A stretch of DNA of 64,000 nucleotides, from assembly GCA_030390025.1 (NCBI GenBank), contig CM059431.1, positions 121,708,001-121,772,000 of the forward strand. Direction: 5' to 3'. A program made the position numbers and the translations under genes. The notes below the pieces were generated by a model that had not been told where the DNA came from, did not search any database, and was given only the letters and a program-made list of their open reading frames with translations. This stretch comes from Squalus acanthias (taxonomy: Eukaryota). This document shows positions 23,985 to 41,735 of the stretch, piece by piece; within the stretch, counting starts at the first letter, position 1, and each line of letters opens with the position of its first letter.

Positions 23985-24515
23985 GAACATAAGAACATAA
24001 GAATTAGAAGCAGGAGTAGGCCATTCAATGAGATCATGGCTGATCTTCTGCCTCAACTCCATTCACTGGCTCTATCGTCATATCCCTTGATGCCTTTACT
24101 AGCCAGAAATCTATCGACATCTGTTTTGAATATTCCCAATGACTGAGCCTCCACAGCCCTCTGGGGTAGAGAATTCCAAAGATTCACCACCTTCTGTGTG
24201 AAGAAATTTCTTCTCATCTCAGTCCTGAATGGCCTACCCTTTATCCTGAGGCTGTGGCCCCTGGTTCTAGACTCCCCAGCCAAGGGAAACATTCTCCCAG
24301 CATCCACCCTATCAAGCCTTGTAATAATTTTGTATGCTTCAATGGGATCCCCTCTCATTCTTCTGAATTCAAGAGAATACAGACCTAGTTTACTCAATCT
24401 CTTCTCATACGACAGTCCCGCCATCCCAGGAATCAATCTCGTGAAACTTCATTGCACTCCCTCTATGGCAAGTATATCCTTCCTTAGGTAAGGAGACCAA
24501 AATTGTACACAGTGA
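23985..24515 (-). mobile_element. CR1 LINE 3' fragment within older L2-like sequence
   Basis: ORF 24053-24436 'LYSLEFRRMRGD..RNFFTQKVVNLWNSLP'; (aacataag) tail. Confidence 0.88.
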
Positions 24516-24715: not shown

Positions 24716-27116
24716 TGTAAGGTTTCCAAAATTTGCAGATCCTCAAAACCTAAGGAAATTAGACTTTGGAACTACCTCAGAGTGATAAAAATGCATTTGG
24801 GACTAACGTAAGGAATTTAAAACCAAAAAACAAGTTTTGGCATTTTAAACATAGAAACATAGAAACATAAAAGATAGGAGCAGGAGTAGGCCATTCGGCC
24901 CCTCGAGCCTGCTCCGCCATTCGATGAGATCATGGCTGATCATCCAAATTCAGTACCCTGTACCTGCCTTCTCCCCATATCCCTTGATACCTTTAGCTTT
25001 AAGAAATATATCTAACTCATTCTTCAATATATTTAATGACTTGGCCTCAACTACCTTCTGTGGTAGAGAATTCCACAGGTTCACCACTCTCTGGGTGAAG
25101 AAATTCTTCCTAATTTCTGTCCTAAATGGCTTACCCCTTATCCTTAGACTGTGACCCCTGGTTCTGGATTCCCCGACCATCGGGAACATCCTTCCTGCAT
25201 CTAGTTTGTCCAGACCTGTCAGAGTTTTATATGTTTCGATGAGATCCCCTCTCATTCTTCTATATTCCAGCGAGTACAAGCCCAATCGACCCAATCTCTC
25301 CTCATGTGTCATTCCTGCCATCCCAGGTATTAGCCTTGTGAATCTTCGCTGAACTCCTTCCATGGCAAGAACATCCTTCTTCAGATAAGGCGACCAAAAC
25401 TGCACACAGTACTCAAGCTGTGGTCTCACCAAGGCCCTGTACAACTGCAGCAGGACATCCCTGTTCCTATACTCAAACCTTTCGCTATGAAGGCCAACAT
25501 ACCATTTGCCTTCTTCACCGCCTGCTGCACCTGGATGCTTACCTTCAGCGACTGGTGCACAAGGACACCCAGGTCTCGTGGCACTTCCCCTTCTCCCAAT
25601 CTATTGCCATTCAGATAAAACTATGTCTGGGCCTGTAAAGGGACAAGGAGGTGGGTACAACCTCTGTAAAAGCAGTTTGGTTATTGCAGTTAATTGCACT
25701 GTCTGGGGAACCGGGATGACCTCACTCAAGCCCCAGCAGAAATTAACATTTGAACAATAGACCCAGGGAAAGAGCAGTCCCACCCAAAATACAGGCCCCA
25801 TCAAAACCGATTACAGGGCCCATCAGAAACATACATATTAAAACCCACTCAGGACCATTCTATAGAAAGACCGAGTCCAGCCAAGAAACCCAAACACAAA
25901 ATCAATCACCAGTTATCAACCAAGGAGATCGACAGGATGCAAGCCATCCCAAAAGCCATTTGACACTTACAGAGCGGTTACTGGTAACAGGCCCGCCAAA
26001 ATCAGACAATGAACTGAGCAGATTTGGCGAGTAGATAAGGCCATGTTCAATGGGTGAGATTGAAGGCCTGTTAAAAAACCAATTAACACGCTAGTAAATC
26101 GTTGCCGGTTAACGAGCCCGCCAAAACCAGACAATGAACTGAGTAGATTTGACGGGTAGATAAGGCCACTTCAATTCCATATAATTGAAGGCCCATTAAG
26201 CACTCAGGTGATCATCAGAAGAAGAAGAAGCAAGGAAGAAGACAAGCCGAGCTGGAAGCGAGTCGGCATCGCTCACCACTCAGACACACCTGAGTCCAGC
26301 TCGTGAAGATACCACCTCGACGGACCTCCAACAACGGTCCCAACACAGTCACCCGGAGCAACAAGCAGCAACAAGTTACCGACAGCTCCACGAGGTCGAC
26401 CGACACACTAGACAAGGCGTAAAACCATCGCGGAAACCAAAGGCCCCAAGAAACCAACAACTGCATATTACCCCCAACTGACCGGGTCATAGCAGGCCAC
26501 CGCGACCAACAAAGACCAACTCAAGGGAAGAAAAACCCGAAAAACCACAAGTGTCCACACTACAAACTACTCCTGACTTACCCCTGGGTAAGATTCTCCC
26601 CAAAGACTCTAAACCCTACTGCTAAACCAAAGAAATTGGGTACTCACCAGATAAATCCATAATGACATCCTACCGCATCAGCAGACTCGCGAAGACTGAC
26701 CAGATATGCAGGTGAAGTGCTCTACCGTGTACGGGGTACAGCAGACACTAACCGCCATAAAAAGCAAACCCCAAAACCGCGATTTAGCCCAACTGTCAAA
26801 GGATTGGTGAGCATTATCCCTGGTCCTTCAAAACCTAACTTAGCTAGTAAAGCGGGGTTGGGAGGGGTGAAGTATTGTTCTACTGTCATTTCCCTCGCTT
26901 GTACCGAAGTGTTCCCCACCTTTAGAGTATTAAGAGTGTTATTATTTGTGTCTTACCTTTTATTAAAGATTGAAGTTCTTTCATCAAACTCAGTTGTCTG
27001 CTGCACCTTTTGTCACAACCCCCAAATAAGTCCAAGGTCTAGAACCAAGGGAGTGGGAGAGATTCGAACCGCTCAGAAGTCAGAGGTGAAGCTGACACAA
27101 ACCACCACCCCCTACA
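24716..27116 (+). repeat. 5' LTR (contains a CR1 insertion)
   Basis: TGTAAGGTTTCC...CCCCCTACA; direct repeat of 40111-41735 once 24850-25615 is removed. Confidence 0.95.
24850..25615 (-). mobile_element. CR1 LINE 3' fragment inserted in the 5' LTR
   Basis: ORF 24950-25444 'YRALVRPQLEYCVQFWSP'; (acatagaa) tail; absent from the 3' LTR. Confidence 0.92.
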
Positions 27117-27119
27117 TAA

Positions 27120-27137
27120 TGGCGACCGCGGCAGGAC
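27120..27137 (+). promoter_or_regulatory. Primer binding site, tRNA-Arg(UCG)-type
   Basis: TGGCGACCGCGGCAGGAC lies 3 nt after the LTR and complements the recalled vertebrate tRNA-Arg(TCG) 3' end GTCCTGCCGCGGTCGCCA. Confidence 0.85.
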
Positions 27138-27190
27138 CTTGGCAAAAGGGATGTGATGCAGTGGACACTGTTTTTGAGGAGAGAACCAAG

Positions 27191-28939
27191 ATGGAGGAAA
27201 GGATTTCCTCCTATGTGTTCAAAAAGGTGAACATAACTAAGAAGTGGGTACTCAGTCTGCTACGTGCTGAACGTCCAATAGATGCTGCAGCTAAGTGGAC
27301 TGAGAGCAAAGACCACAGGAAATCTGTGGAAAAGGCCTTCTGGTTGATCTGCTCCCAGAAACAGATACAACTGTTGGACAAACGTGTTGAGATACTCAAA
27401 GCAGAACTGCAGGAGTCGGCTCAGCTGTCTCAAGCAAGGGCCCCAGCAGGGGAAACATTACTGAATGAGCTAACAGCACGAGATCAGGAAAGGAGGCAGT
27501 TAGTGGAAACGCACAGGAACAGTCAAGAGTATTTTCAGTGTCAGGTCACCGAAGCAAAAAGCAGTGAACTAGTGTTGAGGGAAGAGAACACCTGCCTTGC
27601 CAGGCAAGTAAAGGAACTAGAGGAGAGGTTAAGAGATGTCCAGGCAGCTTACAAGGTAGCAAGCTCAAGGCGGTATGAAACGGGAGAGCATGGCCCCTGC
27701 CAGAAACAAATAGAAAGTTTGAACCTTGCTCTGTCCAGAGCCAAAGACATGGTATGCCTGTTAAGCAAGGGTATGGCCCGAATGGACCTGGAAGTGCAGG
27801 GGGAAACTATTTGAACACCACCTGTGGCGCCGGGGAACGACCCAGTTGGGCAGCAGGAAGAAAGGGCGATTTGTGAGGCTGGCAGGGAGTGCACACCACC
27901 ACCTGTGGCGCCGGGTTTTGACTCGGTTTGGCAGCAGGCAGAGGTGGGCGAACCAATGCAGGAGAGGTCGGAGCCGGGGCCAATGTGCCCGGTCCGGCAG
28001 CAAAAGTTTGGCCCACCCGGAGGTGGTTGGGATCAAGGAGCCCTTGAAAGCCAATTTGTGGCTCCCCACGGTACCCAACAGCTTAGGGCTATGATAAGCC
28101 ACCTGGGCAAACTCACCCAAAAAGGGGACCCCTCAGTCCACTTCATGGAAGTGGAACATGCAGCAGGCATCAATGACTGTGATGATGCCGAGATGGCCAA
28201 AATGCTCCTGTTTTCACTGGACAGCAAAATCTACCATTCCCTTTCCGCAGAGAGTAAAAGAGGGCAGGGTGGATATGCTGCTATCAGAGAGGGAGTTCTG
28301 GAGGCCATGGGTATGAACGATGGTAGTCCTTTCTCCAGTGTGGAGAAGACTACACAGCTAGTAGGGGAGACCCCACAGGCTTTCGCAGACCGACTGTGGC
28401 CTGTGTACAGGAGTGCCTGTAACGGGGATCTCGACAGGGCTCCTCTGAATCAGGATGAGCTGGCCCACTGGCTCCGAAGTCTGGTGGCAAACAGCTTGCC
28501 ACGGATCAGAGCCAAGGCCGAGCTGTGGTTTGACCCAAGGGACCCCCGGGGCACCGAAGAGACAGTCAGACAACTGACGCTAGCTTACCGAAACGATAGG
28601 GGGACAGAAGAGCATCCACCCAAGGGGAAGGTGCATGAGTTAAAACCCAGCCAGGGTAAGAAACAGTGGCACCAGGAAGGGGGTAACCCTTCCGACACGA
28701 AGTGTAACTGCTTTGGGTGCGTGAAGAGTGGGCATTGGAGGAAGGACTGTAGGAATCCGTGGAAGGATAACTTAGGAAAGAATTCCCCAGCCCCTGCCCC
28801 AAAAGTAGAAACCCCAACCTCTCCCCACACGTTAGACTCGGTCGTAGAAGCGATTCGAGAATTGTTAACTGGCCCAGGAAAGGTAGCCACAGCCATTGGG
28901 ACAGTAACCCCATCTGCCGCACCAAACACAGACTTATGA
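27191..28939 (+). pseudogene. gag: Gag: coiled-coil N-region, capsid, CCHC knuckle; one in-frame TGA at 27812
   Basis: ORFs 26717-27814 and 27824-28939 are in the same frame; MHR-like 'TQLVGETPQAFADRL'; 'CFGCVKSGHWRKDC'. Confidence 0.88.
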
Positions 28940-30419
28940 CTAGAGCCAGCGCAGCCTGTCTACCTGTGTCCCTTGGAGTACGACGCTTGGAAGAGGCCAC
29001 TTGTTAGGATGGAGGTGGAAAAGATGAACGGGACTTATCTGCTAGATACTGGAGCCTCCAGCACCATAGTCTATTCAGAGAATCCCACAATCTCACCTCT
29101 GTCTAACGGGGTCCCGTACAGTTTAGTGGGATTCACAGGTAACGAGCAGGCTGGCTCGTTCTCCGTCCCGCTGCCCATTCATTTAGGAACACTCCACACC
29201 AAGTGGACCTGTGTCCTGATGAAATGGGAGAAAGAGGGGACGGGGATCCTGGGGGCCGACTTTATCACAGGCCACAGGATTTTAGTGGATCTGAGGGACC
29301 ACTGTCTGTGGGGAGCATGTGTGGGTAGAGAAAGTGAAGTGGCAGTCATCCCAGGGAAACAGGGCAAGGGGACCTTGTATACCCTAAAACCAAAGGAAGG
29401 TTACGACCTCAAACAAATGGTCAGTAACACTCCGGTGGAGTACCAGGCATTTGTGCAAGCACACCTCGCAGCATTTGCCACTCACAAGCACGACTGTGGG
29501 AGGGTCAACGGGGTCGAGGTTAGTGTCAGTGGAGACCCCATGATCCGACCACAGAAGCAGTATAACTTCCCCAGGGAGGCGGAAGCAGACATGGAAGCAG
29601 CCATGGCTTCCTTAGTAAAGCAGGGGGTGCTGAGACTGATAGCCACCCATGTAAACTCCCCACTTTGGCCGGTTAGAAAACCGGACAACTCCTGGAGGGC
29701 CACAGTGGACTATCGGGTACTCAACCGTAACATCCCCGCCTGTGCACCCACGGTCGCAGCCGTTGCCGACCTCATTGGAAGTATCCCAGCATCTACAACC
29801 ACCTTCACAGTGCTGGACATTTCCAACGGGTTTTGGTCCATCCCTTTAAGAAGGAGGACCAGTACAAGTTTGCCTTCACGTTTAAAGGCCTGGAACTGCC
29901 TACCCCAGGGTTTCCACAATAGCCCCAGCATTTTTCATCAATGCATGGCAAATTGTCTGAAGGGTTTTAGCTAGCCCCGGCAGTTGGTACAGTATGTGGA
30001 CGACCTGCTCCTGTTCACTGATGAAGGAGAAGAACACGGTCCACTACTGGCTGAACTGCTGGAGCTGCTCAGACACGAAGGCTTTAAGGTAAACCCTAAG
30101 AAGGTGCAGATCGGCCAACAGGAAGTTAAATTCCTAGGGCTAACTGTGCGCGCAGGGAAAAGGGCCATTGACAGAGCCAGGAGGGAAGCAGTGCAGGAGT
30201 TATCAGCCCCAAACACAGTCACAGGGGTAAGATCCTTTCTAGGACTGACTGGGTACTGCAGAGATTTTATTGAGAATTATTCAGCCACAGCGGCCCCTCT
30301 GCTCCGACTCCCACAAAGGTGTAGAGTGGGCTTGGGACGAGGGTTGCGAGGCAGCATTTGTAAAGCTCAAGAAGGATCTGCAGACCGCACCAGCTCTAGG
30401 GGCTATTGATGGGGAGAAA
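28940..30419 (+). pseudogene. pol: Pol part 1: aspartic protease and reverse transcriptase
   Basis: 'LLDTGAS', 'NSPLWPVRKPDNSWRATVDYRVLN', 'LDISNGFWSIPL', 'LPQGFHNSPSIF', 'YVDD'. Stop at 29972 and small frameshifts. Confidence 0.93.
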
Positions 30420-30929
30420 GGGGTAAAAATTCAGTTGGTTGTGCCTCCCGTATGCGCCTTAAGAGGGCGCTAATGGGGCACAAAGCCGCTAGCGCCCGGG
30501 CGCAGCGATGTTTGCGCCGCTCAGGAACTTAACTAGACATTGTGCGGCGGTGCGAAACTTTACCGCTGCGACCACCTGCGCGCGTAGATTGTGACGTCAT
30601 TCCATGGTGCAATGCCCTTGTGGCGCCCCGGAGCGGAAATTGAGTGGCACCCTCTGCCTTACCGCCTGGCGCATCCAACGACCGGAAGACTGGAACGCTA
30701 TCAATCGCTGTGGGGCTGGGGGGGCGCTATTTAAAGGGGGCCTCTTCCTGTCTTTTTCTGTGGTTGACATTTTTGCACCACTCGTTCTGAGAGAGAGAGA
30801 GATATTCGGAGAGAGAGAAAGAGAGACTTCTGCATTGAGTCAACGCTGTGTGAGGTAGTTTTGCCTACTGATCCTAACTTCGCTGGTACTTTGGTTGCTG
30901 TCCTTCATAACTTTGCTTGCAAAGAGACT

Positions 30930-32090
30930 ATGGGGGCTGCACTGATTGGGGGCGTCGTCCTGCTCCAGCTGAATCGGAGGACACAGAGACGCAGAGAGAG
31001 AGTGCCAATGATAGCCAGACGGAGGAGGGCCAACAGGCGTATGTACAGGAGAGCTTACCCTCCCAGGGTATATCGTGAACAGCTCTCCTACATTCATATG
31101 TCTGAGGAGCTGTGTTTGCGAAGGCTGTGATTCAGCAAGGAGGTGGTCACTGAGCTCTGCCAGCTGCTGCAGCCAGATCTGTAGCCTCAACTGAGGTCCA
31201 GGACGTCTCTGTCGGTGGCAGTGAAGGTCACAGTGGCTCTCAACTTCTATGCTACTGGCTCATTTCAAGCTGCTGCTGGGGACCTCGCCAATATCTCCCA
31301 GTTCGCGGTGCATTGCTGCATCCGGCAGGTCACAAATGCCCTCTTTAAAAGGAGACGAGAGTTCATCTCTTTCCCCATGACCCCAGACAAGCAGCGTGAC
31401 CGCGCTCTGGGCTTTGCGAGGATAGCGGGCTTCCCCATGGTGCAGGGCGCCATTGACTGCACGCATGTGGCTTTGCGTGCTCCACATGAGAATGCCGAGG
31501 AATTCCGGAACAGAAAGGGGTTCCATTCCTTGAATGTTCAGTTGGTCTGTGACCACAGACAGCTGATACTCGCTGTCAATGCCCACTATCCCAGCAGCTG
31601 CCACGATGCTTTCATCCTGCGCCAGACTACTGTGGCAGAACTTTTCGAGGCACCGCATCAGTCAGTTGGTTGGCTTCTCGGGGACAAGGGGTATCCATTG
31701 AGCACCTGGCTGATGACACCGCTCCGTACGCCCAACCCCCCTGCTGAGCTGCGGTACAACGAGAGCCATCAAGCTACCAGGAACATCATTGAGCGCACAA
31801 TCGGCGTGCTGAAGCAACGGTTCCGCTGTCTCGACCATTCTGGAGGAGCCCTGCAGTACTCGCCTGAGCGAGTATCCAACTTCGTAGTTGTGTGCTGCAT
31901 GTTGCATAACATGGCAATCGTCAGGACCCAGCCAATGCAACCAGGCCTTGGAGCACCACCAGAGGAGGAGGAGGATGAGGAGGAAGAGGACGAGGAGGAT
32001 GATCATCAGCAGCACCAAGGCGGGAGGGCGGCCCACAATGGTGAAACTGCAAGGGCCGTCCGTCAACGGCTGATAGCAAGCCGCTTCTAG
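30930..32090 (+). pseudogene. Harbinger DDE transposase (HARBI1-like), two in-frame stops
   Basis: 'GAIDCTHV', 'NRKGFHSLNVQLVCD', 'HDAFIL', 'WLLGDKGY', 'RNIIERTIGVLKQRFRCL'. Confidence 0.95.
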
Positions 32091-32402
32091 GGCCCCTGCT
32101 GTGGAAATGGCTTCTGCCATTGCTAACAACATCAATGAACCCAGCACGCAACCCCTAAGCCAGCAAAGGCACCAATGATTCCAAACACCAAACATGTATA
32201 TTTTGAATACAAAAACTTATTTATTTTACAAACTCTGTGTGTGTCATTTCCTCATGACAAACTCATAGAAATAAACACAAAAAAACAGTCATTAACATAA
32301 CTGGTTCTCACAACCTGGAGATAATGTCCAAAACACTAGACAAAAGTTGGACCACGAACCTCGGCCTTTAATAAAAAAATGACCAGCATTTTGTCACACC
32401 TC

Positions 32403-34216
32403 CTACTTTTTGCCCTTCAAGGGTGATTTCCTTCCCTTGCGCACTTCCCCCCTTCTAACCCTACTGCTCCTCCGTAATGGGACCTCAGTGGCTGCAGCAA
32501 GGCTGGTGGAAGGCTGCAGATTGTCAGACCCTGACACTGCAGATGCCCCTGAAGGACGGCCTCGACCAGTTCTGGGCCTGGAGGGCCCGGCTGCAGACTG
32601 CACCAACTCTGCATGGGCGGCAGCAGTCTGTCCTACAGGCGGTGGCAAGTGCAGTGGAGAAGTGACAGTGTTGGCAGCAGGAATGCTGTCAGCATGAGAG
32701 AGGACAGCAACTCCCTGCTCGCCCGACACACTGGCACTCCCACGGGGCAGCACTTCAGCATCGGGAGCAATCTGCTGGAGCACAGATTGCTGGCCTGCTG
32801 CGGCGCGGTGAGAGCCCTGGGGACATGTGAACGAACCATCAAGGTTGGCAGCAGTCAGTGCTCGCGTGGCCTCAATCTGCATGAGAGCAGTCAGAGATGG
32901 GATCACGGCAGTCAGTGACTGAATTGCAGCACTAAGCGTTAGTGTGGCATCCGCCTGTGCTACAGCGAAGTGCTCCACACTCCTTGCCAGTGACTCAATG
33001 CATTCGGGCACCCTTCCCACTGCACCCATGAGCTCAGTGTGCATGCCCACCGCCTGGGTGTTCATTTCTGCGATCAGCCGCTCCTGCTCTGCGTCCATTG
33101 CAGTAGGAGTCGCTGGCATACTCTCCCTCTGGGGAGAAGGCCCCCGTTCTTCCCTACCCCCATGGCGTTGCTGCAGCCCGCTGGGTCCTGGAGCTTCACC
33201 CTCATCAGACCCTTCCCCCCTGCTCCCCTCCAGGGAAGGCGTGTTCCCAGTGTGGGCATGGGCTTCCTCGGGAGACGGTGGCACTGATGCTCCGGCTTCC
33301 TCTTCCTCCTCGGCTGCAGCTTCACTCCCACTGGCAGCTTCAGGGCCCGTCTCCTCAGCTGGTGAATCACCATCTGAAAGCCGGGAGGTACAAGAGTGGC
33401 TTTAGCGTGAGGACAGGGTGGCAGTAAGGGAGGAATAAGTGCAGCGAGTTAGCAAGTTGGATTGAAAGTGTCAAAGGCTGGTGTTGTGAGGGACAAGTGG
33501 AAGGACAGAGGACAAAAAGGTGATGACCTTACCATTGCTGTCCAGAACGGGGTCAGCGTCTCCAGTGGCGACGGGACCGATCACCCGGCTTGCCACAATC
33601 CTGTGGACGCGCTCCTCAAGATCGCTGAGGGGTTGCAGCTGAGGCCGCCCTCCACCTGTCCGTTGCTGCTGTCTCCAATTATGCGCCAGCTTGGCCTGCA
33701 AGTAAAAGGACAGCATCTGAGTAAATATACAGCCATGGTCTTGCCTGATGTGCCTCCCATAGGTGAATAGCCCTTACTGTATGCAGCCATGGTCTTGCCT
33801 GATGTGCCTCCCATAGGTGAATAGCCCTTACAGTATGCAATGTGTGGAATGTGTGTGTGTGTTTCATGAAAGGGCCATAGGTGTTGGATGAGTGTTGTGC
33901 ATTGGGGTTTTAAGACCCTCTGGCCATAGAGTGAGGTTGAGATGGAGGGATGGAGAGGTATTGAGAAAAAGCCACTCACCCTGACGACCCGAGTGAGGTC
34001 GTTGAACTTTTTGCGGCATTGAACATGGGTCCTGGGCACCATGCTCCTGGAGGAGACGCTCTGAGCCACCTCCCTCCACACTCTTCTGTACTCGCGTGGC
34101 AAAGGCCTCCTGCCACTCTCAGGGAAGAGTATACATCTTCAGCGCTCCACCGCGCCAACCAGAGCATCCAAGGCCCGCTCGGTGAAGCGCTGAGCTCGTT
34201 CTCTCACCCTCTCCAT
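32403..34216 (-). pseudogene. Harbinger Myb/SANT-like protein gene; exons ~34216-33980, 33695-33533, 33373-32403
   Basis: 'RAQRFTERALDALVGAV...VWREVAQSV..RTHVQCRKKFNDL'; GT-AG introns (gtgagt/ttgcag, gtaagg/tttcag); basic C-terminus. Confidence 0.88.
33730..33838. repeat. 54-bp tandem duplication in the Harbinger intron
   Basis: 'cagccatggtcttgcctgatgtgcctcccataggtgaatagcccttac' starts at 33730 and 33784. Confidence 0.9.
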
Positions 34217-34577
34217 CCTTGGCAGCAAAATGGATTCACAGGTCTCTCCAGGCCGAGATTCAAGGCTGCAATGAGTAGGGTGTGGCTGGGGAGCAAGTTG
34301 GCCCCCCCGCTTTAAGAACTGGCCGGCGCCAGTGTGTCTGTGTTCCCTCGCTAACTGGCAGCGCCTGCGCTGCGCCCGCGCGCTGAGTTTGTGCCTCACT
34401 GCTCGGCCTTTGCACCTTAAGACAGTTGTGCAGCGCCTGATTTAGCGCTCCACTCACCTCCCGGGGCGGTAAAAGTGAAGTTTCCAGTCAGTGCCGATAA
34501 TTAGCGCCAGGCGCTAATTTTTGCGTCCAGACGATATTTGCTCCCCAAATGGGGCGCGACCTAATTTTTCCCCCAAA

Positions 34578-36920
34578 GAGTTTTTCCAGGAGGTGGCAGC
34601 CAGCGGGGACAGTCTGAGTGCTGTGCTGCTCCAAGAGAGGCACGACAGGCTGAGACCAGTGGTCTACTCCGCCAGGATACTCACTGATGTGGAGAAGGGC
34701 TACTCTAACTGTGAGAGGCAGCTCCTCGCCACTCACTGGGCTGTGAAAAGATCATTGATCTTCACAGGCACATCTCCCATCACCCTGCTCACCCATCACA
34801 CGCCCACCCAGATGCTCCTAGATGGGAGAATCAAAGATGGGACAGTGAGCAGTGCCCGCATTGCCCGCTGGACCCTACTTCTCTCCCAGATGGACCTAAG
34901 GGTAAAAGGTCTCTGCGAGCCGAGGCTCGCAGCCAATCTGATTTACCCAGGGAACGCCCACCGGTGTTCCATTGAAGGGGTATGGGAAGTCAACATAGGT
35001 TTTCGGGCCGGGATACACACCACAGGCCGCAAAATCTATGTGGACGGTTCGAGCACAGTATCTGCTGGAGAACGACTCAAAGGGTGTGGAGTTTATGACC
35101 CAGAGGCGGACATTGCCTTGGCCATTAAACTCCCCAGCACCATGAGCGCCCAGCAGGCTGAACTGTCTGCAGTGGTGTATGTGGTTACACACCCCGAGAA
35201 GTTCCCTACCCCATACACGATTTGCTCGGACAGCATGTTCACATGCAATTCGTGTACGGAGTACCTGGCCATCTGGTCCCGTCGCGGATACACCTCCGCT
35301 GATGGGAGACCCCTTACCATAAAGCCCCTGTTGGAGAGAATCATGGCAGCAGTGGGGGAGGAAGGGAAGGTTTTTATCCATAAGGTAAAGGCCCACTCTA
35401 AGAAAGAGCCCAAGTGGGAAAACAACCACAAGGCAGACAAGCTGGCCAAACAGGGGGCCAGAGAAGGAGTATTCTGGGACCCGTACCAAGCGGGTCCAGT
35501 AGCAGCAGTCCGGGCAAGGGGAAGCACACAGGGTGTAGCTTTGGCCCCGGAATTAAAGCAGGCCCAAGCCCAGGACACAGTCCTCAAGACTGTCCTGAAC
35601 AGGCTTGAAAAAGGGGAGAAAGTAGAGGGCCCGTACGGCGCAGTAGCCATTACCGTAAAGGAAGGCATGCTGTTCAGGGGGGAGCAGTGGGTGGTGCCAC
35701 AGCAGCACCGAAGGGAATTCCTCCAACTGGCCCATGAGCGTCCAGGAGCGGGGCATCCCGGACCTGAGACCACCTGGCAACGGGTGGAACAGACAGGATG
35801 GTGGCCAGGACTCCGGGAAGATGTCCGCGAGTTTTGTGCAGGCTGCCTAGTGTGTGCTGCTAACAACCCAGACCCCCAGAAAAGGAAGGTGTCCATGGGA
35901 CACATCAGGAGGGTAGAGGGACCATGGCAGTCGATCCAGATCGACTACATCGGGCCCCTACCCGCTGCCCAAGGAGGTTTTAAGTACTGCCCAGTCCTGG
36001 TTGATGTGTTCTCAAAGTGGGTAGAAGCATTCCCATGCCGTACGGCTACTGCATTGGGTACGGCTAGGATCCTAGTCAGGGAAATGTTCTCACGATGGGG
36101 AGTACCACAGTATGTGGAGTCCGACCAGGGGAGTCATTTTACTGGGCAGGTTATGCAAGAGACCCTCAGGGTGCTCGGCAGAGAGGGGAAATGGCACGTC
36201 GCCCACAACCCGCAGTCATCAGGTCCTGTGGAGCATTTAAACCGTACCATTAAGGAAAGGCTACGGAAGGAAACGGGAGACTCACCCAAAAGATGGGTAG
36301 AACTCTTACCGTTGGTCTTAATGGGGATCCGAGCCAGCCAGTCAAAAAGCACGGGGTATTCCCCACACGAGCTCATGACTGGCAGGGTTATGCGGACCCC
36401 CACCCATGTGCTAGCCCCGGTGCTCACGGAAGGGCAGCTCAGAGAGGTGAACCGGGACAGATTCGTCAGGAATCTGTTGGGCCACCTTAAACAGGTCCAG
36501 TGGCAGGCTGCGAGCAACATGGGAAAACAGCATCGGAGTAACCGATTGCTGCTCCAACCCCGCAATCACCACGAGTGGGAGGTGGGAGATCAGGTCATGG
36601 TTAGGAATTTTGCCCGGTTGGGGAGATTCGAACCATTGTACATGGGGCCCTACCACATTGTGGACAAGGCAAGCCCCATGGTCTATGCCATAAAGATGCC
36701 CCGCCGTACAAAGTGGTTCCATATCAACCAATGCAAGCTGTTTAAACCCGAGAAAAGGGAACAGTCAGCAAAGGTGGACCACCCCAAAGTTAGAAATCCC
36801 CAGCCAGCAGCTGTGGCAGACGCACAGGCTGCAGCAACAGGGACCGTGGCTTGTATCACATTGGGTACACTCCACCGATTATGTGGGACTCAGGCACACC
36901 CCCAGTGGCCAGAGTCCTGA
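34578..36920 (+). pseudogene. pol: Pol part 2: degenerate RNase H (tether), second RNase H, integrase
   Basis: 'EKGYSNCERQLLA'; then 'IYVDGS..SAQQAELSAV..ICSDS..HKVKAH..NHKADKLAK'; HHCC 'AH..GHPG..CLVC'; 'IDYIGPLP', 'SDQGSHF', 'SSGPVEHLN', 'GPY'. Confidence 0.95.
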
Positions 36921-37472
36921 GAAGGTCTCCTCGCACACCACAGCCTAAACTGCCGTGGTCACCGGTACATCAGTGGGTCAGCCCAAAAGGGGCTGCAACC
37001 CGAAAAGGAGTGCCCAAGGCCAGGGAGCGTTCAAAAGTTAGGGATCCCCAGCCGGCAACCTCACGCTGCGGGGAACCCACAGGACAGGACAGGGACTCAG
37101 CAGCCACACCAAAGGAGGGGACACTCCCGGGATTGTCAGGGATTCAGGGAAACCCTCAGTTGTTCTAAGAAGGACTCTCAAGTTCCTGCGGTACAGGCCA
37201 CCTTACGTCCAGGCGTACAGGCTGCTCAGAAGCTGCCCAAGGTAGAGGCCATGCAGGGATTGAGCTGGCCGTCCGGAGATGGGCGGCGAATGTACAGAGT
37301 TTTAATTTTAGGTGTTTTACAGTTTTGGTAGTTTTAGGATTTTAAGAATTCTAGTTTTAAGGATTTTAGTAAGTAAGTTTAAAGATCTCAAGAATCGATC
37401 ACCCGTCAAGCCGAAGAACCTTCTCGGGACATGGCTGTCTGTTTTGTGTGTCCCTACAGAGAGGAAATCGGC

Positions 37473-39814
37473 ATGGCAAGGGTTCTGCTCCTGCTCGCCC
37501 TGGTAGGGGTGAGCATTGGTGACCGAGGTGACATGGAGGACTCCCACATCTATGGGTGCTCATGAGAGAGAGCACCGGTCGTTACCGCAGGGGGTGGTGA
37601 GCGGGGAGTGGAGGAGCTCGCCATCTACTTCCACGAGGGAAGGTGGCCAGGGTGGCTGGGGTTCAACTCTACAAGATACTCCAGCCAGACCAGGTTCACG
37701 TACGGGGAGGCCTCCCTCCCATGCCCCAGAGTACAGGTCGTTGCCACGAGGGTCAGCGTCACCGAGGGGAAACGTGTGTGCCTTACCTGCAAGGGACGAA
37801 TTCCCCTGAACAGGTGGTGGTGGCTCAGGAAGCTAAGCAGGGACGCAGGGGACCATACAGCCGACTGGGAACGATTAGGGAACGACACCTACCGGACAAT
37901 CACAGCGACCCATGGGGGAGTGAGTGTGTGTTGGGATAAGTGGTGGGAGTCGGAACAGGGAGTCTATGTTTGTATGTGGGGGTCAGAGAAAGCCTGCCCC
38001 ACAGGCATATCCATCATCTTCTCCATACAATGGCAAGATGTCGGGGAGGGGATGGGGTGGGATTCTAGCCTACATGCATGCGCGCTCCCACACTCCCTGG
38101 TCCCAGTTAACGCCACCGAACCAGTAGCACGCCCCCGAATGCCCCTGCCCACGACCACAACCTCACAGACAGTAGTAGAGAGCGTCCTACCACCACCAAG
38201 GGACCAGAAAATGGGCTAGTACTAGTGCTGACCAAAAAGGTACTCTACCAGGGGGTACACTATGCAGTAGCTTCAGTTATATTAAACCTTACCGAGGTAC
38301 ACTTACCTAAATGGTGTCCTAAGGAGACAGAACAGCTATACCAGGCCCTGCTAAAAGAAATGTTGAGAAAATTCTATGAATTTGACTTTGCCAACATAGA
38401 CAAAGCAGAGCTGTACAAACTGCACGCAGAGCACACTATGGGCGCAGGGAGACAAAGAAGGGGAACCTGGAACGATATTTTCACTACCTACAATACAGGA
38501 TCCTCTGTAATAAATAGCCTAGATGACGTAGAGCTACAAACACAGATAAATGGTTTAAAAACCCAGTTAAGAAAGATCCTAAAGGGTGAGAACACAGTCG
38601 TAGGCTCAGAGCTACAGGAGGACCAAGCTATGACGGTCCATCTAAAAGAGATTATTGCTGAGCTAGAGAGACACGCTAAAACAGTAAATGCACTTATACG
38701 GGAGGACAGGAATGCTTCGGATCAGGCTGCACAGACTGAGGTGTGTGTGCTATATGGGGCATGGTTGCTGGGCGAGGGCCGCAGCAACCTGGAGGATTTA
38801 AAACAAGGTTTAGTCCCCTCCTGGATTAGCAACAAACACCTCGCAGCCCTCCACCCGTTCAGCAATTCACTGAGCCCGTGTCAGCTCTGCCTAGCCTCTG
38901 AAGCCTACCCAGTCCCAGTAGATTGTGGGCGTTCAAATCACACTATCATGGGGATAGTAGTGAGGATGCCGGTCATGGGTGGGACAGCCCATCCCGCACC
39001 GGTATACAGGGTGGAGAACATTGGGGTCATTCAAGGGGGTGCACACGTCCGTTTCGCAGCGGTCCCACCTTATGTCATAAAGTGGGAGCACGCTATGACA
39101 GGTACTGACCTCTCCGGGTGCTGGAGCCGGGGTTCACACATAATACTGTGTCCCCAGCACTTGAACACCTACTGTAGACCACAGTGCGGGTTTAAAGCTG
39201 CTGGCGCATGACCTATCAACTGTACCATGGAGGTAATGGCACAAGGCCATGTTCCCCCACAGGTAGCATTCATAGGGGGTGGGACATATTTTGTCACCAC
39301 AAGTACGCCCCACTACCAGCATGGACAGCATTTTTGGTGTCCGGTGAGTGACAGCAGTTTCTGCTTTAAACCCGAGGCAGAAGTTCAAGTGGCCCAGGAT
39401 CGGATTGTCCCCATTCCTGAACCCTCAACTGTTCACCTCACTGTAAGGGAAAACATTACCAACCTGCAAAACTATGTCACATTCTTCATCTATAAGATTC
39501 CTCCTCTACCCGAACACCTTACCGTCTTACTTAAAGCTGTACAGGTATCACAAAAGTATTTCTACACCCTAGAACAAAAGACACTCGAGATAGGGGCTGA
39601 GATTTCGGCCATCACGGTTCCACCCTGGTGGGACATTTTTGAAAATATAGAGGTTCCTTCCTGGATTAGGATGGCCTCCCACATCTTAGTGGCTTGCCAG
39701 CTCGGGATAGTCTTGTACTTGCTGTGTACAAAGTGTAAGGGGAAGGACAGAATGCTCCATTCCCGGCATGAGAAAGCCTGGGAAAAACATTACAATAAAG
39801 TTTACCAAGTATAA
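37473..39814 (+). pseudogene. env: Envelope glycoprotein (signal peptide, Ig-like domain, class I F-like fusogen, TM); 2 stops and 1 frameshift
   Basis: Splice acceptor 'ctgttttgtgtgtccctacag' ends 37459; 'MARVLLLLALVGVSIG'; furin site RQRR (38450-38461); heptads; Cys-rich region; TM 'HILVACQLGIVLYLLC'. Confidence 0.88.
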
Positions 39815-40110: not shown

Positions 40111-41735
40111 TGTAAGGTTTCCAAAATTTGCAGATCCCCAAAACCTAAGGAAAAAGGACTTTGGAACTACCTCAGAGTGATAAAAATGCATTTGGGCCTA
40201 ACCTAAGGAATTTAAGACCAAAAACCAAGTTTTGGCATTTTAAAACTATGTCTGGGCCTGTAAAGGGACAAGGAGGTGGGGTCGACCTCTGTAAAAGCAG
40301 TTTGGTTATTGCAGTTAATTGCACTGTCTGAGGAACCGGGATGACCTCACTCAAGCCCCAGCAGACATTAACATTTGAACAATAGACCCTGGGAGAAGAC
40401 AGTCCCACCCAAAATAACAGGCCCCATCAAAACCGATTACAGGGCCCATCAGAAACATACATATTAAAACCCACTCAGGACCATTCTATAGAAAGACCGA
40501 GTCCAGCCTAGAAACCCAAACACAAAATCAATCACCAGTGATCAACCAAGGAGATCGACAGGACGTAAGCCATCCCAAAAGCCATTTGACACTTACAGAG
40601 CGGTTACTGGTAACAGGCCCGCCAAAATCAGACAATGAACTGAGCAGATTTGGCGGGGAGATAAGGCCATGTTCAATGGGTGAGAGTGAAGGCCTGTTAA
40701 AAAACCAGTTAACAGGCTAGTAAATCCTTACCGGTTAACGAGCCCACCAAAACCAGACAATAAACTGAGTAGATTTGGCGGGTAGATAAGGCCACTTCAA
40801 TTCCGTATAATTGAAGGCCTGTTAAGCACTCAGGTAGTCATCAGAAGAAGAAGAAGCAAGGCAGAAGACAAGCCGAGCTGGAAGCGAGTCGGCATCGCTC
40901 ACCACTCAGACACACCTGAGTCCAGCTCGTGAAGCTACCACCTCGATGGACCTCCAACAACGGTCCCAACACAGTCACCCGGAGCAACAAGCAGCAACAA
41001 GTCACCAACGAGGTCGACCAACACACAAGACAAGGCCTAAAACCATCGCGGAAACCAAAGGCCCCAAGAAACCAACGACTGCATATTACCCCCAACTGAT
41101 CGGGTAATACCAGGCCACCGCGACCAACAAAGACCAACTCAAGGGAAGAAAAACCCGAAGAACCGCAAAGTTTCCACTCTGCAATCTACTCCTGACTTAC
41201 CCCTGGGTAAAATTTTCCCCAAAGACTCTAAACCCAACTGCTAAACCAAAGAAACTGGGTACTCAGCTGATAGATCCAAAATGACATCCTACCACATCAG
41301 CGGACTCGCGAAGACTGACCAGATACGCAGGTGAAGTCCTCTACCGCGTACGGGGTACGGCAGACACTAACCGCCATAAACAGCAAACCCCAAAACCGTG
41401 ATTTAGCCCAACTGTCAAAGGATTGGTGAGCATTATCCCTGGTCCTTCAAAACCTAACTTAGCTGGTAAAGTGGGGTTGGGAGGGGTGAAGTATTGTTCT
41501 ACTGTTATTTCCCTCGCTTGTACCGAAGTGTTCCCCACCTTTAGAGTATTAAGAGAGTTATTATTTGTGTCTTACCTTTTAATAAAGATTGAAGTTCTTT
41601 CATCAAACTCAGTTGTCAGCTGCACCTTTTGTCACAACCCCCAAATAAGTCCAAGATCTAGAACCAAGGGAGTGGGAGCGATTCGAACCGATCAGAAGTC
41701 AGAGGTGAAGCTGACACAAACCACCACCCCCTACA
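40111..41735 (+). repeat. 3' LTR (1625 bp)
   Basis: TG...CA; TATA-like TATAAT ~40806; AATAAA at 41581; direct repeat of the 5' LTR. Confidence 0.95.

Follow-up and report, generated by a model that had tools for sequence, protein, structure and literature searches.

Fusion (F) proteins of paramyxoviruses normally work together with a separate attachment protein. Retroviruses with an envelope protein (Env) of the paramyxovirus F type were described in 2020 (PMC7947760), and the question raised by the locus studied here is how an F-type retroviral Env finds its target cell without an attachment protein. The locus lies in a stretch of 64,000 nucleotides from Squalus acanthias (assembly GCA_030390025.1, contig CM059431.1, forward-strand positions 121,708,001 to 121,772,000), which we call the window and whose own numbering is used below. 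Its env gene is a decayed copy belonging to a high-copy endogenous retrovirus (ERV), and an earlier note, made from the sequence alone, had placed an immunoglobulin (Ig)-like domain and a Pro/Thr stalk in front of the fusion protein. Our reading, to which we assign a probability of about 60%, is that the gene encoded an F-type retroviral Env with a built-in receptor-binding Ig head resembling a retroviral surface subunit (SU). An Ig head before F2 would be a concrete answer to the question above.

The uninterrupted 2385-nt env open reading frame (ORF) of a second copy, L031, can be aligned by blastn with the window env over its full length, the two being 94.3% identical apart from a single one-base gap. 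The L031 gene encodes a 794-residue protein (P0005) with every part in frame, in the order signal peptide, Ig-like region, Pro/Thr linker, F2-like strand, RQRR site, fusion peptide, heptad repeats and anchor. The window env is broken three times, by stop codons at 37563-37565 and 39209-39211 and by a one-base frameshift at ~38180. The earlier note had the Ig part in frame with the signal peptide and one frameshift away from the F-like part. The signal peptide does share the Ig frame, starting at the ATG at 37431, and that frame is open in other copies, but in the window copy the first stop parts the two. Likewise, a single one-base gap does separate the Ig and F-like parts, but the second stop is a further lesion, within the F-like core. 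A Pro/Thr/Ser-rich linker follows the Ig region, as the note had it; in an intact relative, 19 of its 41 residues are Pro, Thr or Ser and there is one N-glycosylation sequon (NAT). This linker carries the window copy's frameshift, and the 'LPPP' with which the note ended the stalk is a product of it: the window ORF closes with '..VVESVLPPPRDQKMG*', whereas in open-frame copies the linker leads into CPTTTKGPENGLVLV, which puts 'LPPP' outside the stalk.

Structure comparison bears out that the remainder of Env is F-like. In the full-length Env model (mean predicted local distance difference test score (pLDDT) of 60.6), the greater part of residues 250-320 and 430-660 scores 75-95. When this model was compared with the PDB using Foldseek, all 40 listed matches were paramyxo/pneumovirus F proteins (respiratory syncytial virus, human parainfluenza virus 3, Langya, Newcastle disease virus, Nipah and others), with E values of 2e-9 to 1e-5, a best probability of 1.00 and ~450-555 aligned columns. 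VIA gave the same result, with F proteins in all 50 listed rows (Z 8.7-12.6, 276-374 residues aligned). Model residues 259-666 form the stretch aligned to F chains. The VIA alignments begin at model residue 257-259, opposite F residue 23-38 in most rows, which we take to be the start of mature F2 in F numbering; two rows start at F residues 6 and 130 instead. Since the alignments start where mature F starts, residues ~31-256 represent an N-terminal add-on without an F counterpart. In P0005, the cleavage site 'RQRR|GTWNNIFTTYNAGSSVINSL' occupies residues 341-344 (GTWNNIF... after the site; about 38450-38461 in the window), helices are predicted at 347-389, 396-458 and 693-727, and an anchor helix starts at 744, with 'ILV(A/V)CQLGIVLYLLC' as the anchor sequence. 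On the basis of these models, we conclude that the part of Env from residue 259 onward is a paramyxo/pneumovirus F fold. No second glycoprotein ORF, and no other long ORF, is present between integrase and the 3' long terminal repeat (LTR), in agreement with the note's idea that a built-in domain may replace the separate attachment protein.

The add-on contains the elements of an Ig domain. The stop-to-stop ORF at 37566-38219 (+) reads '...PRVQVVATRVSVTEGKRVCLTCKGRIPLNRWWWLRK...WESEQGVYVCMW...PVARPRMPLPTTTTSQT...', and the residues quoted in the note as a V/I-set pattern are present: 'RVCLTC' (C120), 'RWWW' (W128-130) and, as E-x-G-x-Y-x-C, 'EQGVYVC' (C181), at canonical spacing with 61 residues between the cysteines. 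Among relatives at 55-64% identity, these motif residues vary little or not at all. Pfam Ig_3 matches residues 54-136 of the window ORF (37725-37973) over profile positions 2-74 of 78, with an E value of 0.0081 and 17.1 bits; among five family members, E values are 0.0027-0.04 in four and 0.58 in the fifth, the best scores being 17.1-18.6 bits. A model of the head, built for residues 28-240 from an alignment of 15 rows (relatives 55-96% identical), has eight to ten strands. Foldseek returned 184 PDB matches to it at E<=1e-3, and all those listed are Ig V/I-set domains, including antibody and T-cell receptor V domains, basigin, Nav beta4, Dpr10 and obscurin-like-1 (target TM-score 0.55-0.67, root-mean-square deviation (rmsd) about 3-4 Å, about 105-110 columns). 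A VIA-wide search of 48,161 chains, which is independent of Foldseek, found 12 with Z>=8, and Ig-type domains fill its best 50 rows (Z 7.6-8.4, rmsd 2.3-3.9 Å, 84-108 residues). In a viral structure library, the neighbours of the head come from herpes-, adeno- and poxviruses and are Ig-like glycoproteins, and there is no retroviral or mononegaviral glycoprotein among the best 50 rows. A protein-language-model atlas gave low scores (0.78-0.80) that include several Ig families, a lead only. Taken together, the models make it very likely, although unproven, that the N-terminal head has an Ig-like fold. After the signal peptide, the N-terminal part carries sequons at residues 79, 151 and 227 and nine cysteines, features that would fit an exposed ectodomain.

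The head has also been conserved. Of 40 loci, 19 have an uninterrupted 213-codon N-terminal frame, and we grouped these by eye into four subfamilies. Nei-Gojobori ratios of nonsynonymous to synonymous substitution (dN/dS) between subfamilies lie at 0.16-0.32 when the N-terminal part is taken as a whole and at 0.10-0.31 within the Ig core, the latter falling below 0.35 in all six comparisons; one caveat here is that the choice of open frames biases these values somewhat downward and that there was no neutral control. As far as codon comparison can tell, the ratios show purifying selection on the N-terminal part of env, Ig core included.

A frameshift between head and fusion part raises the issue of whether the element made one Env or two proteins. 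Of 5981 first-look candidates in the same genome, 150 were scored against the Ig ORF, and all of them carry the segment, at 81-100% identity, so the motif is not a chance one. In 17 of 29 other fetched loci, the Ig-motif frame is open past the junction; 16 of these reach 'YQGVHY' and one more a furin motif. When the DNA of 40 loci was aligned, the position of the window's one-base gap proved unique (0 of 39 others). Nine other loci have one-base gaps of their own, at five or more other places, which makes them independent lesions; a further locus has a two-base gap and another an in-frame six-base gap. Because all linker frameshifts run into one and the same stop, frames of 272 residues recur, and because the query held the shifted tail, frameshifted copies ranked high, an ascertainment effect. 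In P0001 and in the skate relatives P0002 and P0006, too, a single frame covers the Ig and F2-like parts. The note's proposal to compare genomic copies thus has a clear outcome: the frameshift is private to the window copy, representing decay, and the Ig domain is part of a single Env rather than a separate secreted protein.

The one-base gaps cluster in a linker region of ~130 nt, corresponding to 38082-38210 of the window (copies L002, L012 and L033-L040), and in L033 and L037 a 272-residue head frame and a 568-residue F-like frame are both open. Much of this clustering is due to query ascertainment, with assembly indel errors or slippage as further possible sources. We also considered that the Ig part might be a host exon overrun by the provirus. 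This was ruled out, as the segment sits between integrase and the F-like part in every examined copy, within one ORF. Among the sequencing runs listed as holding the family, none is recorded as RNA. Contigs from four runs are 90-99% like env, some covering the Ig region, but the RNA status of the runs was guessed and the family has thousands of copies, so these contigs say nothing on expression.

How old is the architecture? When 1.84 billion representatives were searched exhaustively, 46 proteins reached E<=1e-3, with close relatives in a skate (Rhinoraja longicauda), a sawshark (Pristiophorus japonicus) and a catshark (Scyliorhinus torazame). In relatives from other cartilaginous fishes the Ig segment is 55-64% identical, and its presence in skate, sawshark and catshark indicates that the fusion is not recent. 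A word-indexed search with the family alignment found no relatives beyond chondrichthyans. Distant full-length Envs, with 20-31% identity in the F part, occur in Chiloscyllium punctatum (P0014), Mustelus asterias (P0015), the frogs Pelodytes ibericus (P0023) and Mantella aurantiaca (P0043, a 16-member cluster) and Xenopus tropicalis (P0034/P0064). All have 120-220 residues before the conserved 'CP....GP..GL' start of the F2-like strand. Some of these extensions show Ig-like traces. P0014 is labelled 'Ig-like domain-containing protein' in UniRef; six of its nine sub-significant PDB rows are antibody VH domains (residues 68-145, E 0.05-0.85), and its N-terminal part alone gives Pfam Ig_3 at E 0.031 and Ig_2 at E 0.07. 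P0036 gives V-set at E 0.045. The window's own genome contributes 83 P0014 matches, 33-81% identical, one of which is a 784-residue open Env (L044:1189-3543).

Several deeply divergent Env lineages (L044, L047, L048), each with its own N-terminal head, are found in this same genome, which also holds thousands of env-bearing fragments. The heads of the divergent lineages share 'LNWP.FW.RH.G....C', which lines up with VCWDKWWESEQGVYVC of the window family. In a profile-profile comparison of the window family, by a profile of its N-terminal part only, with these heads (A5), the best local alignment falls at that motif and is non-significant (E 0.032, probability 1.6%). Comparisons of this profile with P0014, P0023, P0043, P0036 and P0015 were non-significant as well (probability 0.1-1.6% over the whole set, A5 included); the best local alignments lie on the equivalent E-F strand motif for P0014 and A5 and across the Ig region for P0023. 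With hhalign, alignment A3, which held rows running into F, matched the distant Envs in their F parts only. From these sequence comparisons, common ancestry of the heads across Env lineages is plausible. A bolder and tentative proposal, which we would not yet bet on, is that all vertebrate F-type retroviral Envs, from sharks to frogs, carry a homologous Ig head taken once from a host surface gene several hundred million years ago, a basigin-like I-set domain being the lead. The fusion would have turned a partner-dependent fusogen into an autonomous one-gene entry machine usable as a retroviral env, and the shark elements would be either a lineage missed by lokiretrovirus screens based on reverse transcriptase (RT) or a distinct one.

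In our proposal, the working Env would be one type I membrane glycoprotein. It would consist of a signal peptide, a conserved N-terminal segment of ~65 residues, an Ig-superfamily-like beta-sandwich (~98-197), the linker and a complete F-type class I fusion machine, the last comprising the F2-like strand, the furin-type RQRR site, the fusion peptide, two heptad repeats and the membrane anchor. Cleavage at RQRR would produce an SU-like subunit (Ig head, linker and F2 strand) and an F1 subunit like the retroviral transmembrane (TM) subunit. Because the element encodes a single glycoprotein and F normally needs a partner, we infer that the head binds the cell receptor and so takes over the task that falls to a separate attachment protein in paramyxoviruses. 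The Pro/Thr linker would be glycosylated and hold the head above the trimer, and the head would derive from a host Ig-superfamily gene. The result would be a modular entry protein in which a viral fusogen is combined with an adhesion domain of probable host type. What the earlier note observed is confirmed and its structural reading was right, while its interpretation as a captured module for receptor binding or immunomodulation is partly supported.

A number of points weigh against this reading. Cleavage, receptor binding and fusion are predictions, and pneumovirus F can attach on its own, so an add-on head is no logical necessity. On the F side, PF00523 was not matched at E<=1 by the window pieces, P0005, P0001, P0002 or P0003, at E<=0.1 by 11 relatives, or at E<=10 by 11 relatives (six of them shared with the E<=0.1 set), and a 35-member family profile matched no F chain in the PDB by sequence. 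On the head side, the head model has a mean pLDDT of 48.8 and a predicted TM-score of 0.51, with pLDDT of 55-70 in model residues 70-170, and the full-length model stays below 50 over most of residues 1-250. None of the five family members reached a curated Ig profile threshold (30 bits for Ig_3), and no Ig chain in the PDB was matched by sequence with a clean family profile of the domain, from which the chimeric P0009 (zinc fingers plus an env fragment) was kept out. Moreover, Z values of ~8 are near the level of unrelated models according to VIA's own note. These head scores would also fit a region that is no Ig domain at all, the Cys, Trp and 'GxYxC' residues being chance features of a Cys- and Trp-rich beta region and the model having drifted to the commonest beta-sandwich. 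We find this quite improbable, given that two independent structure searches yield Ig-type domains only, that the Pfam match covers almost the full profile and keeps the motifs of strands B, C and F in register, and that the motif residues persist across relatives little more than half identical. It is also conceivable, if unlikely, that a genuine Ig head served mainly as a prefusion clamp or cap, as a shield of glycans or against immunity, or as a decoy that modulates immunity, with attachment left to the F-like body. Many Ig-like glycoproteins of herpes-, adeno- and poxviruses are immune modulators, and such membrane glycoproteins are the head's neighbours in the viral library; the partner-free attachment of pneumovirus F, the three sequons of the head and the mucin-like linker could be counted on the same side. 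However, nothing favours a role of this kind over receptor binding, the selection seen on the head is purifying rather than diversifying, and the head occupies the position of retroviral SU, N-terminal to the cleavage site.

Two further accounts concern where the head came from and how it was expressed. Rather than a host gene, its source could be viral, either a duplicated Ig-like beta-sandwich domain of F itself or whichever donor supplied the F-type env. The searches brought up no host gene with significant similarity, and even very distant Envs (F part <=27% identity) have the 120-220-residue extension with Ig-like traces in the same place, which makes the add-on ancient. Yet C...W...D/E-x-G-x-Y-x-C is the hallmark pattern of V/I-set domains in animals and not that of F domain II, and the best structural matches are cellular I/V-set domains (20-21% identity); a viral source seems improbable to us. 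As for expression, a functional frameshift would yield a separate secreted Ig protein of ~260-270 residues, with the F-like part made alone or via programmed frameshifting. The recurrence of one-base gaps, of the shared stop and of 272-residue frames within the same stretch of linker would suit such a scheme, as would the open F-like frames downstream in L033 and L037. The scheme is largely refuted and in our judgment has next to no chance of being right: the gaps lie at several places and are independent lesions, the ranking reflects ascertainment, most other fetched copies read through, as do relatives from other species, and the window copy has an additional stop between signal peptide and Ig part. 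The data are better accounted for by a single F-type Env with a receptor-binding Ig head.

Positions of all features are collected in Table 1.

Table 1. Parts of the provirus and of its env gene, in window coordinates
Feature	Position	Strand	Basis
5' LTR (TG...CA)	24716..27116	+	blastn against 3' LTR, ends read
gag: coiled-coil N-terminal part, capsid-like part with one CCHC knuckle	27152..28939	+	ORFs
pol, first part: protease and reverse transcriptase	28940..30409	+	Pfam, ORFs
PIF/Harbinger-type DNA transposon splitting pol	30470..34500 (approximate boundaries)		Pfam DDE_Tnp_4, E 2.3e-38
pol, second part: RNase H-like tether, RNase H, integrase	34518..36920	+	Pfam
env, whole gene	37431..39814	+	blastn against intact L031 env
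Signal peptide MARVLLLLALVGVSIG	37473..37520	+	read directly; predicted helix 16-24 in full model
Probable Ig-like domain, Env residues ~98-197 ('CLTC' B-strand, 'RWWW' C-strand, 'EQGVYVC' F-strand)	37722..38021	+	Pfam Ig_3 below threshold, fold model, Foldseek, VIA, dN/dS
Pro/Thr/Ser-rich linker	38082..38203	+	composition, sequons, 40-locus junction alignment
F-like ectodomain core: F2-like strand, cleavage site, fusion peptide, long heptad-repeat helix, beta-rich domains	38204..39427	+	Foldseek, VIA, secondary structure
Membrane-proximal heptad repeat, transmembrane anchor (about 39683-39745), short cytoplasmic tail	39428..39814	+	predicted helices 693-727 and 744-792
3' LTR, purine-rich tract just before	40111..41735	+	blastn against 5' LTR

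The LTRs, ~1.63 kb in length, match by blastn in two blocks, 25616-27116 versus 40241-41735 (94.7% over 1504 columns) and 24716-24849 versus 40111-40244 (94.0%, 134 columns), the 5' copy being interrupted by a 766-bp foreign insertion at 24850-25615. In all, 76 mismatches in 1638 columns correspond to a divergence of ~4.6%. At the LTR rate implied by a supplement table of PMC7947760 (0.162 for 36.82 million years (My)), the window copy would be roughly 10 My old, a figure that is probably too low if evolution is slow in cartilaginous fishes. Both LTRs contain a tandem duplication of a unit of ~101-125 nt (25985-26210 and 40611-40836), the units being 74-77% identical. The 5' LTR insertion has a minus-strand ORF (24950-25600), and its segment 24976-25275 is 76% like the neighbouring 24079-24378. 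This insertion and the stretch 24053-24448 are probably 3' ends of a non-LTR retrotransposon; neither gave a Pfam match at E<=0.1.

The gag ORFs 26666-27814 and 27815-28939 share one frame, with an in-frame stop at 27812-27814, and contain CFGCVKSGHWRKDC. The gag end is a stop in frame with pol: a single stop codon (28937-28939) lies between the two in the same frame, and L033 has the same layout ('...PNADL*LEPAQPV...'). Gamma- and epsilonretroviruses use stop-codon read-through for Gag-Pol, and the layout here suggests that Gag-Pol may have been made in this way too. The N-terminal part of gag (27152-27814) is a long predicted coiled coil, '...KELEERLRDVQAAYK...', and a Pfam search of gag at E<=0.1 returned no match except a weak coiled-coil one. 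An SMC-like gene has been reported in some lokiretroviruses; the Pfam search of gag gave no SMC family match.

In the first part of pol, Pfam matches RVP (E 2.9e-4) and RVT_1 (E 1.4e-11 and 6.7e-12), and there is an in-frame stop at 29972-29974. The pol frames end at 30409 and resume at 34518, on either side of the Harbinger insertion, whose ORFs are a DDE transposase at 31185-32090 (+) and a second, 332-residue one at 32403-33401 (-). Another ERV copy, L032, has a closely similar open transposase ORF of 386 residues (L032:4968-6128) directly after a truncated env; this transposon and the ERV family may have nested repeatedly. The second part of pol matches RT_RNaseH (2.4e-16), RNase_H (2.7e-19), Integrase_H2C2 (3e-19) and rve (1.1e-14). 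The solved chains closest to the integrase are those of prototype foamy virus (E 6.9e-31) and Ty3 (E 1.9e-24), while for the RT of a sister copy they are gammaretroviral (E 4e-43), then foamy virus (2e-35), then Ty3 (3e-31). This ranking, one of similarity and not a phylogeny, would fit a deep-branching retrovirus.

Several public gene models from sawshark and other species (P0009, P0011, P0013, P0020) join env fragments to host genes under names such as 'zinc finger protein ZFP2-like', 'Niban 1-like' and 'cadherin-related family member 5-like'. They are probably annotation chimeras, and users of public shark gene models should be warned that several fuse env pieces to host genes.

Among known systems, the closest are the lokiretroviruses, defined by RT phylogeny as the sister group to all other retroviruses (PMC7947760, Wang & Han 2020). 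The window element shares with them the layout LTR-gag-pol-env-LTR, a degraded RNase H tether followed by RNase H, and, at the level of fold, an F-like Env with signal peptide, basic cleavage site, fusion peptide, coiled coil and anchor. It also has Env relatives in Xenopus tropicalis, a lokiretrovirus-positive species in that survey. The lokiretrovirus Env resembles paramyxo/pneumovirus F and matches PF00523 at E 2.2e-7, whereas the window family is F-like by fold only. In addition, the Env model in that paper names no N-terminal domain, and the word 'immunoglobulin' is absent from its main text. The hosts differ as well: close relatives of the window element are found in skate, sawshark and catshark, whereas none of the six chondrichthyan genomes in the survey scored positive (genomes screened/positive: Carcharhiniformes 1/0, Orectolobiformes 3/0, Rajiformes 1/0, Chimaeriformes 1/0). 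Our results thus place abundant retroviruses with F-type Envs in cartilaginous fishes, where the founding survey reported none. In the literature searched, to which subscription journals do not belong, we found no description of an Ig head on an F-type retroviral Env. The accessible text of a study of F- and gB-type Envs in invertebrate Ty3/gypsy elements (10.1101/2023.10.26.564294) contains neither 'immunoglobulin' nor 'Ig-like', and a 2026 review (PMC13709493) mentions lokiretroviruses, in the part available, for classification only. Judged against these sources, the F-type retroviral Env was already known, and what is new is the Ig-like head and its occurrence in a host group reported negative.

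With paramyxo/pneumovirus F (1ztm, 3rki, 8tve, 8tvg), the window Env shares the whole ectodomain fold, from the start of mature F2 to heptad repeat B, and the order of cleavage site, fusion peptide and anchor. Unlike F, it has ~225 extra residues (Ig-like head and linker) before F2, no detectable sequence similarity, and a retroelement setting without a separate attachment protein gene. The core of the gammaretroviral SU receptor-binding domain is an Ig-like beta-sandwich, and like SU the window head is N-terminal and glycosylated, by prediction, with a Pro-rich linker to the fusion subunit and a furin-type site between; a corresponding role is presumed. In contrast to retroviral Env, the head has a canonical Ig-superfamily signature and the fusion subunit is F-type rather than TM-type, and no SU is among the listed structural matches of the head.

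The note had also called for the closest host Ig gene, and here the search yielded none that was significant by sequence. The lead is basigin (CD147). It provides the top, non-significant PDB sequence row for the head (5xf0_A, E 0.92), and its domain 2 is the best VIA-wide match (7xy8_A, Z 8.4, rmsd 2.7 Å, 88 residues, 20% identity). Other membrane-proximal Ig domains of the basigin, neuroplastin and embigin group follow (4u0q_B, Z 8.2; also 9gsd_B, 7yr5_B and 2wv3_A), and Foldseek adds 6lyy_B, 3b5h_C and 7y1b_A at 22% identity. However, domains of titin, NCAM2, CD79b and TREM score within 1 Z unit of this group, so basigin is a donor lead and not evidence of descent. Finally, the best matches in the viral library, the RL11/UL families of cytomegalovirus, adenovirus E3 CR1 and the poxvirus 'hemagglutinin', have Ig-like ectodomains like the window head, but these are stand-alone accessory proteins, whereas in the window Env the Ig-like domain forms the head of a fusion protein.

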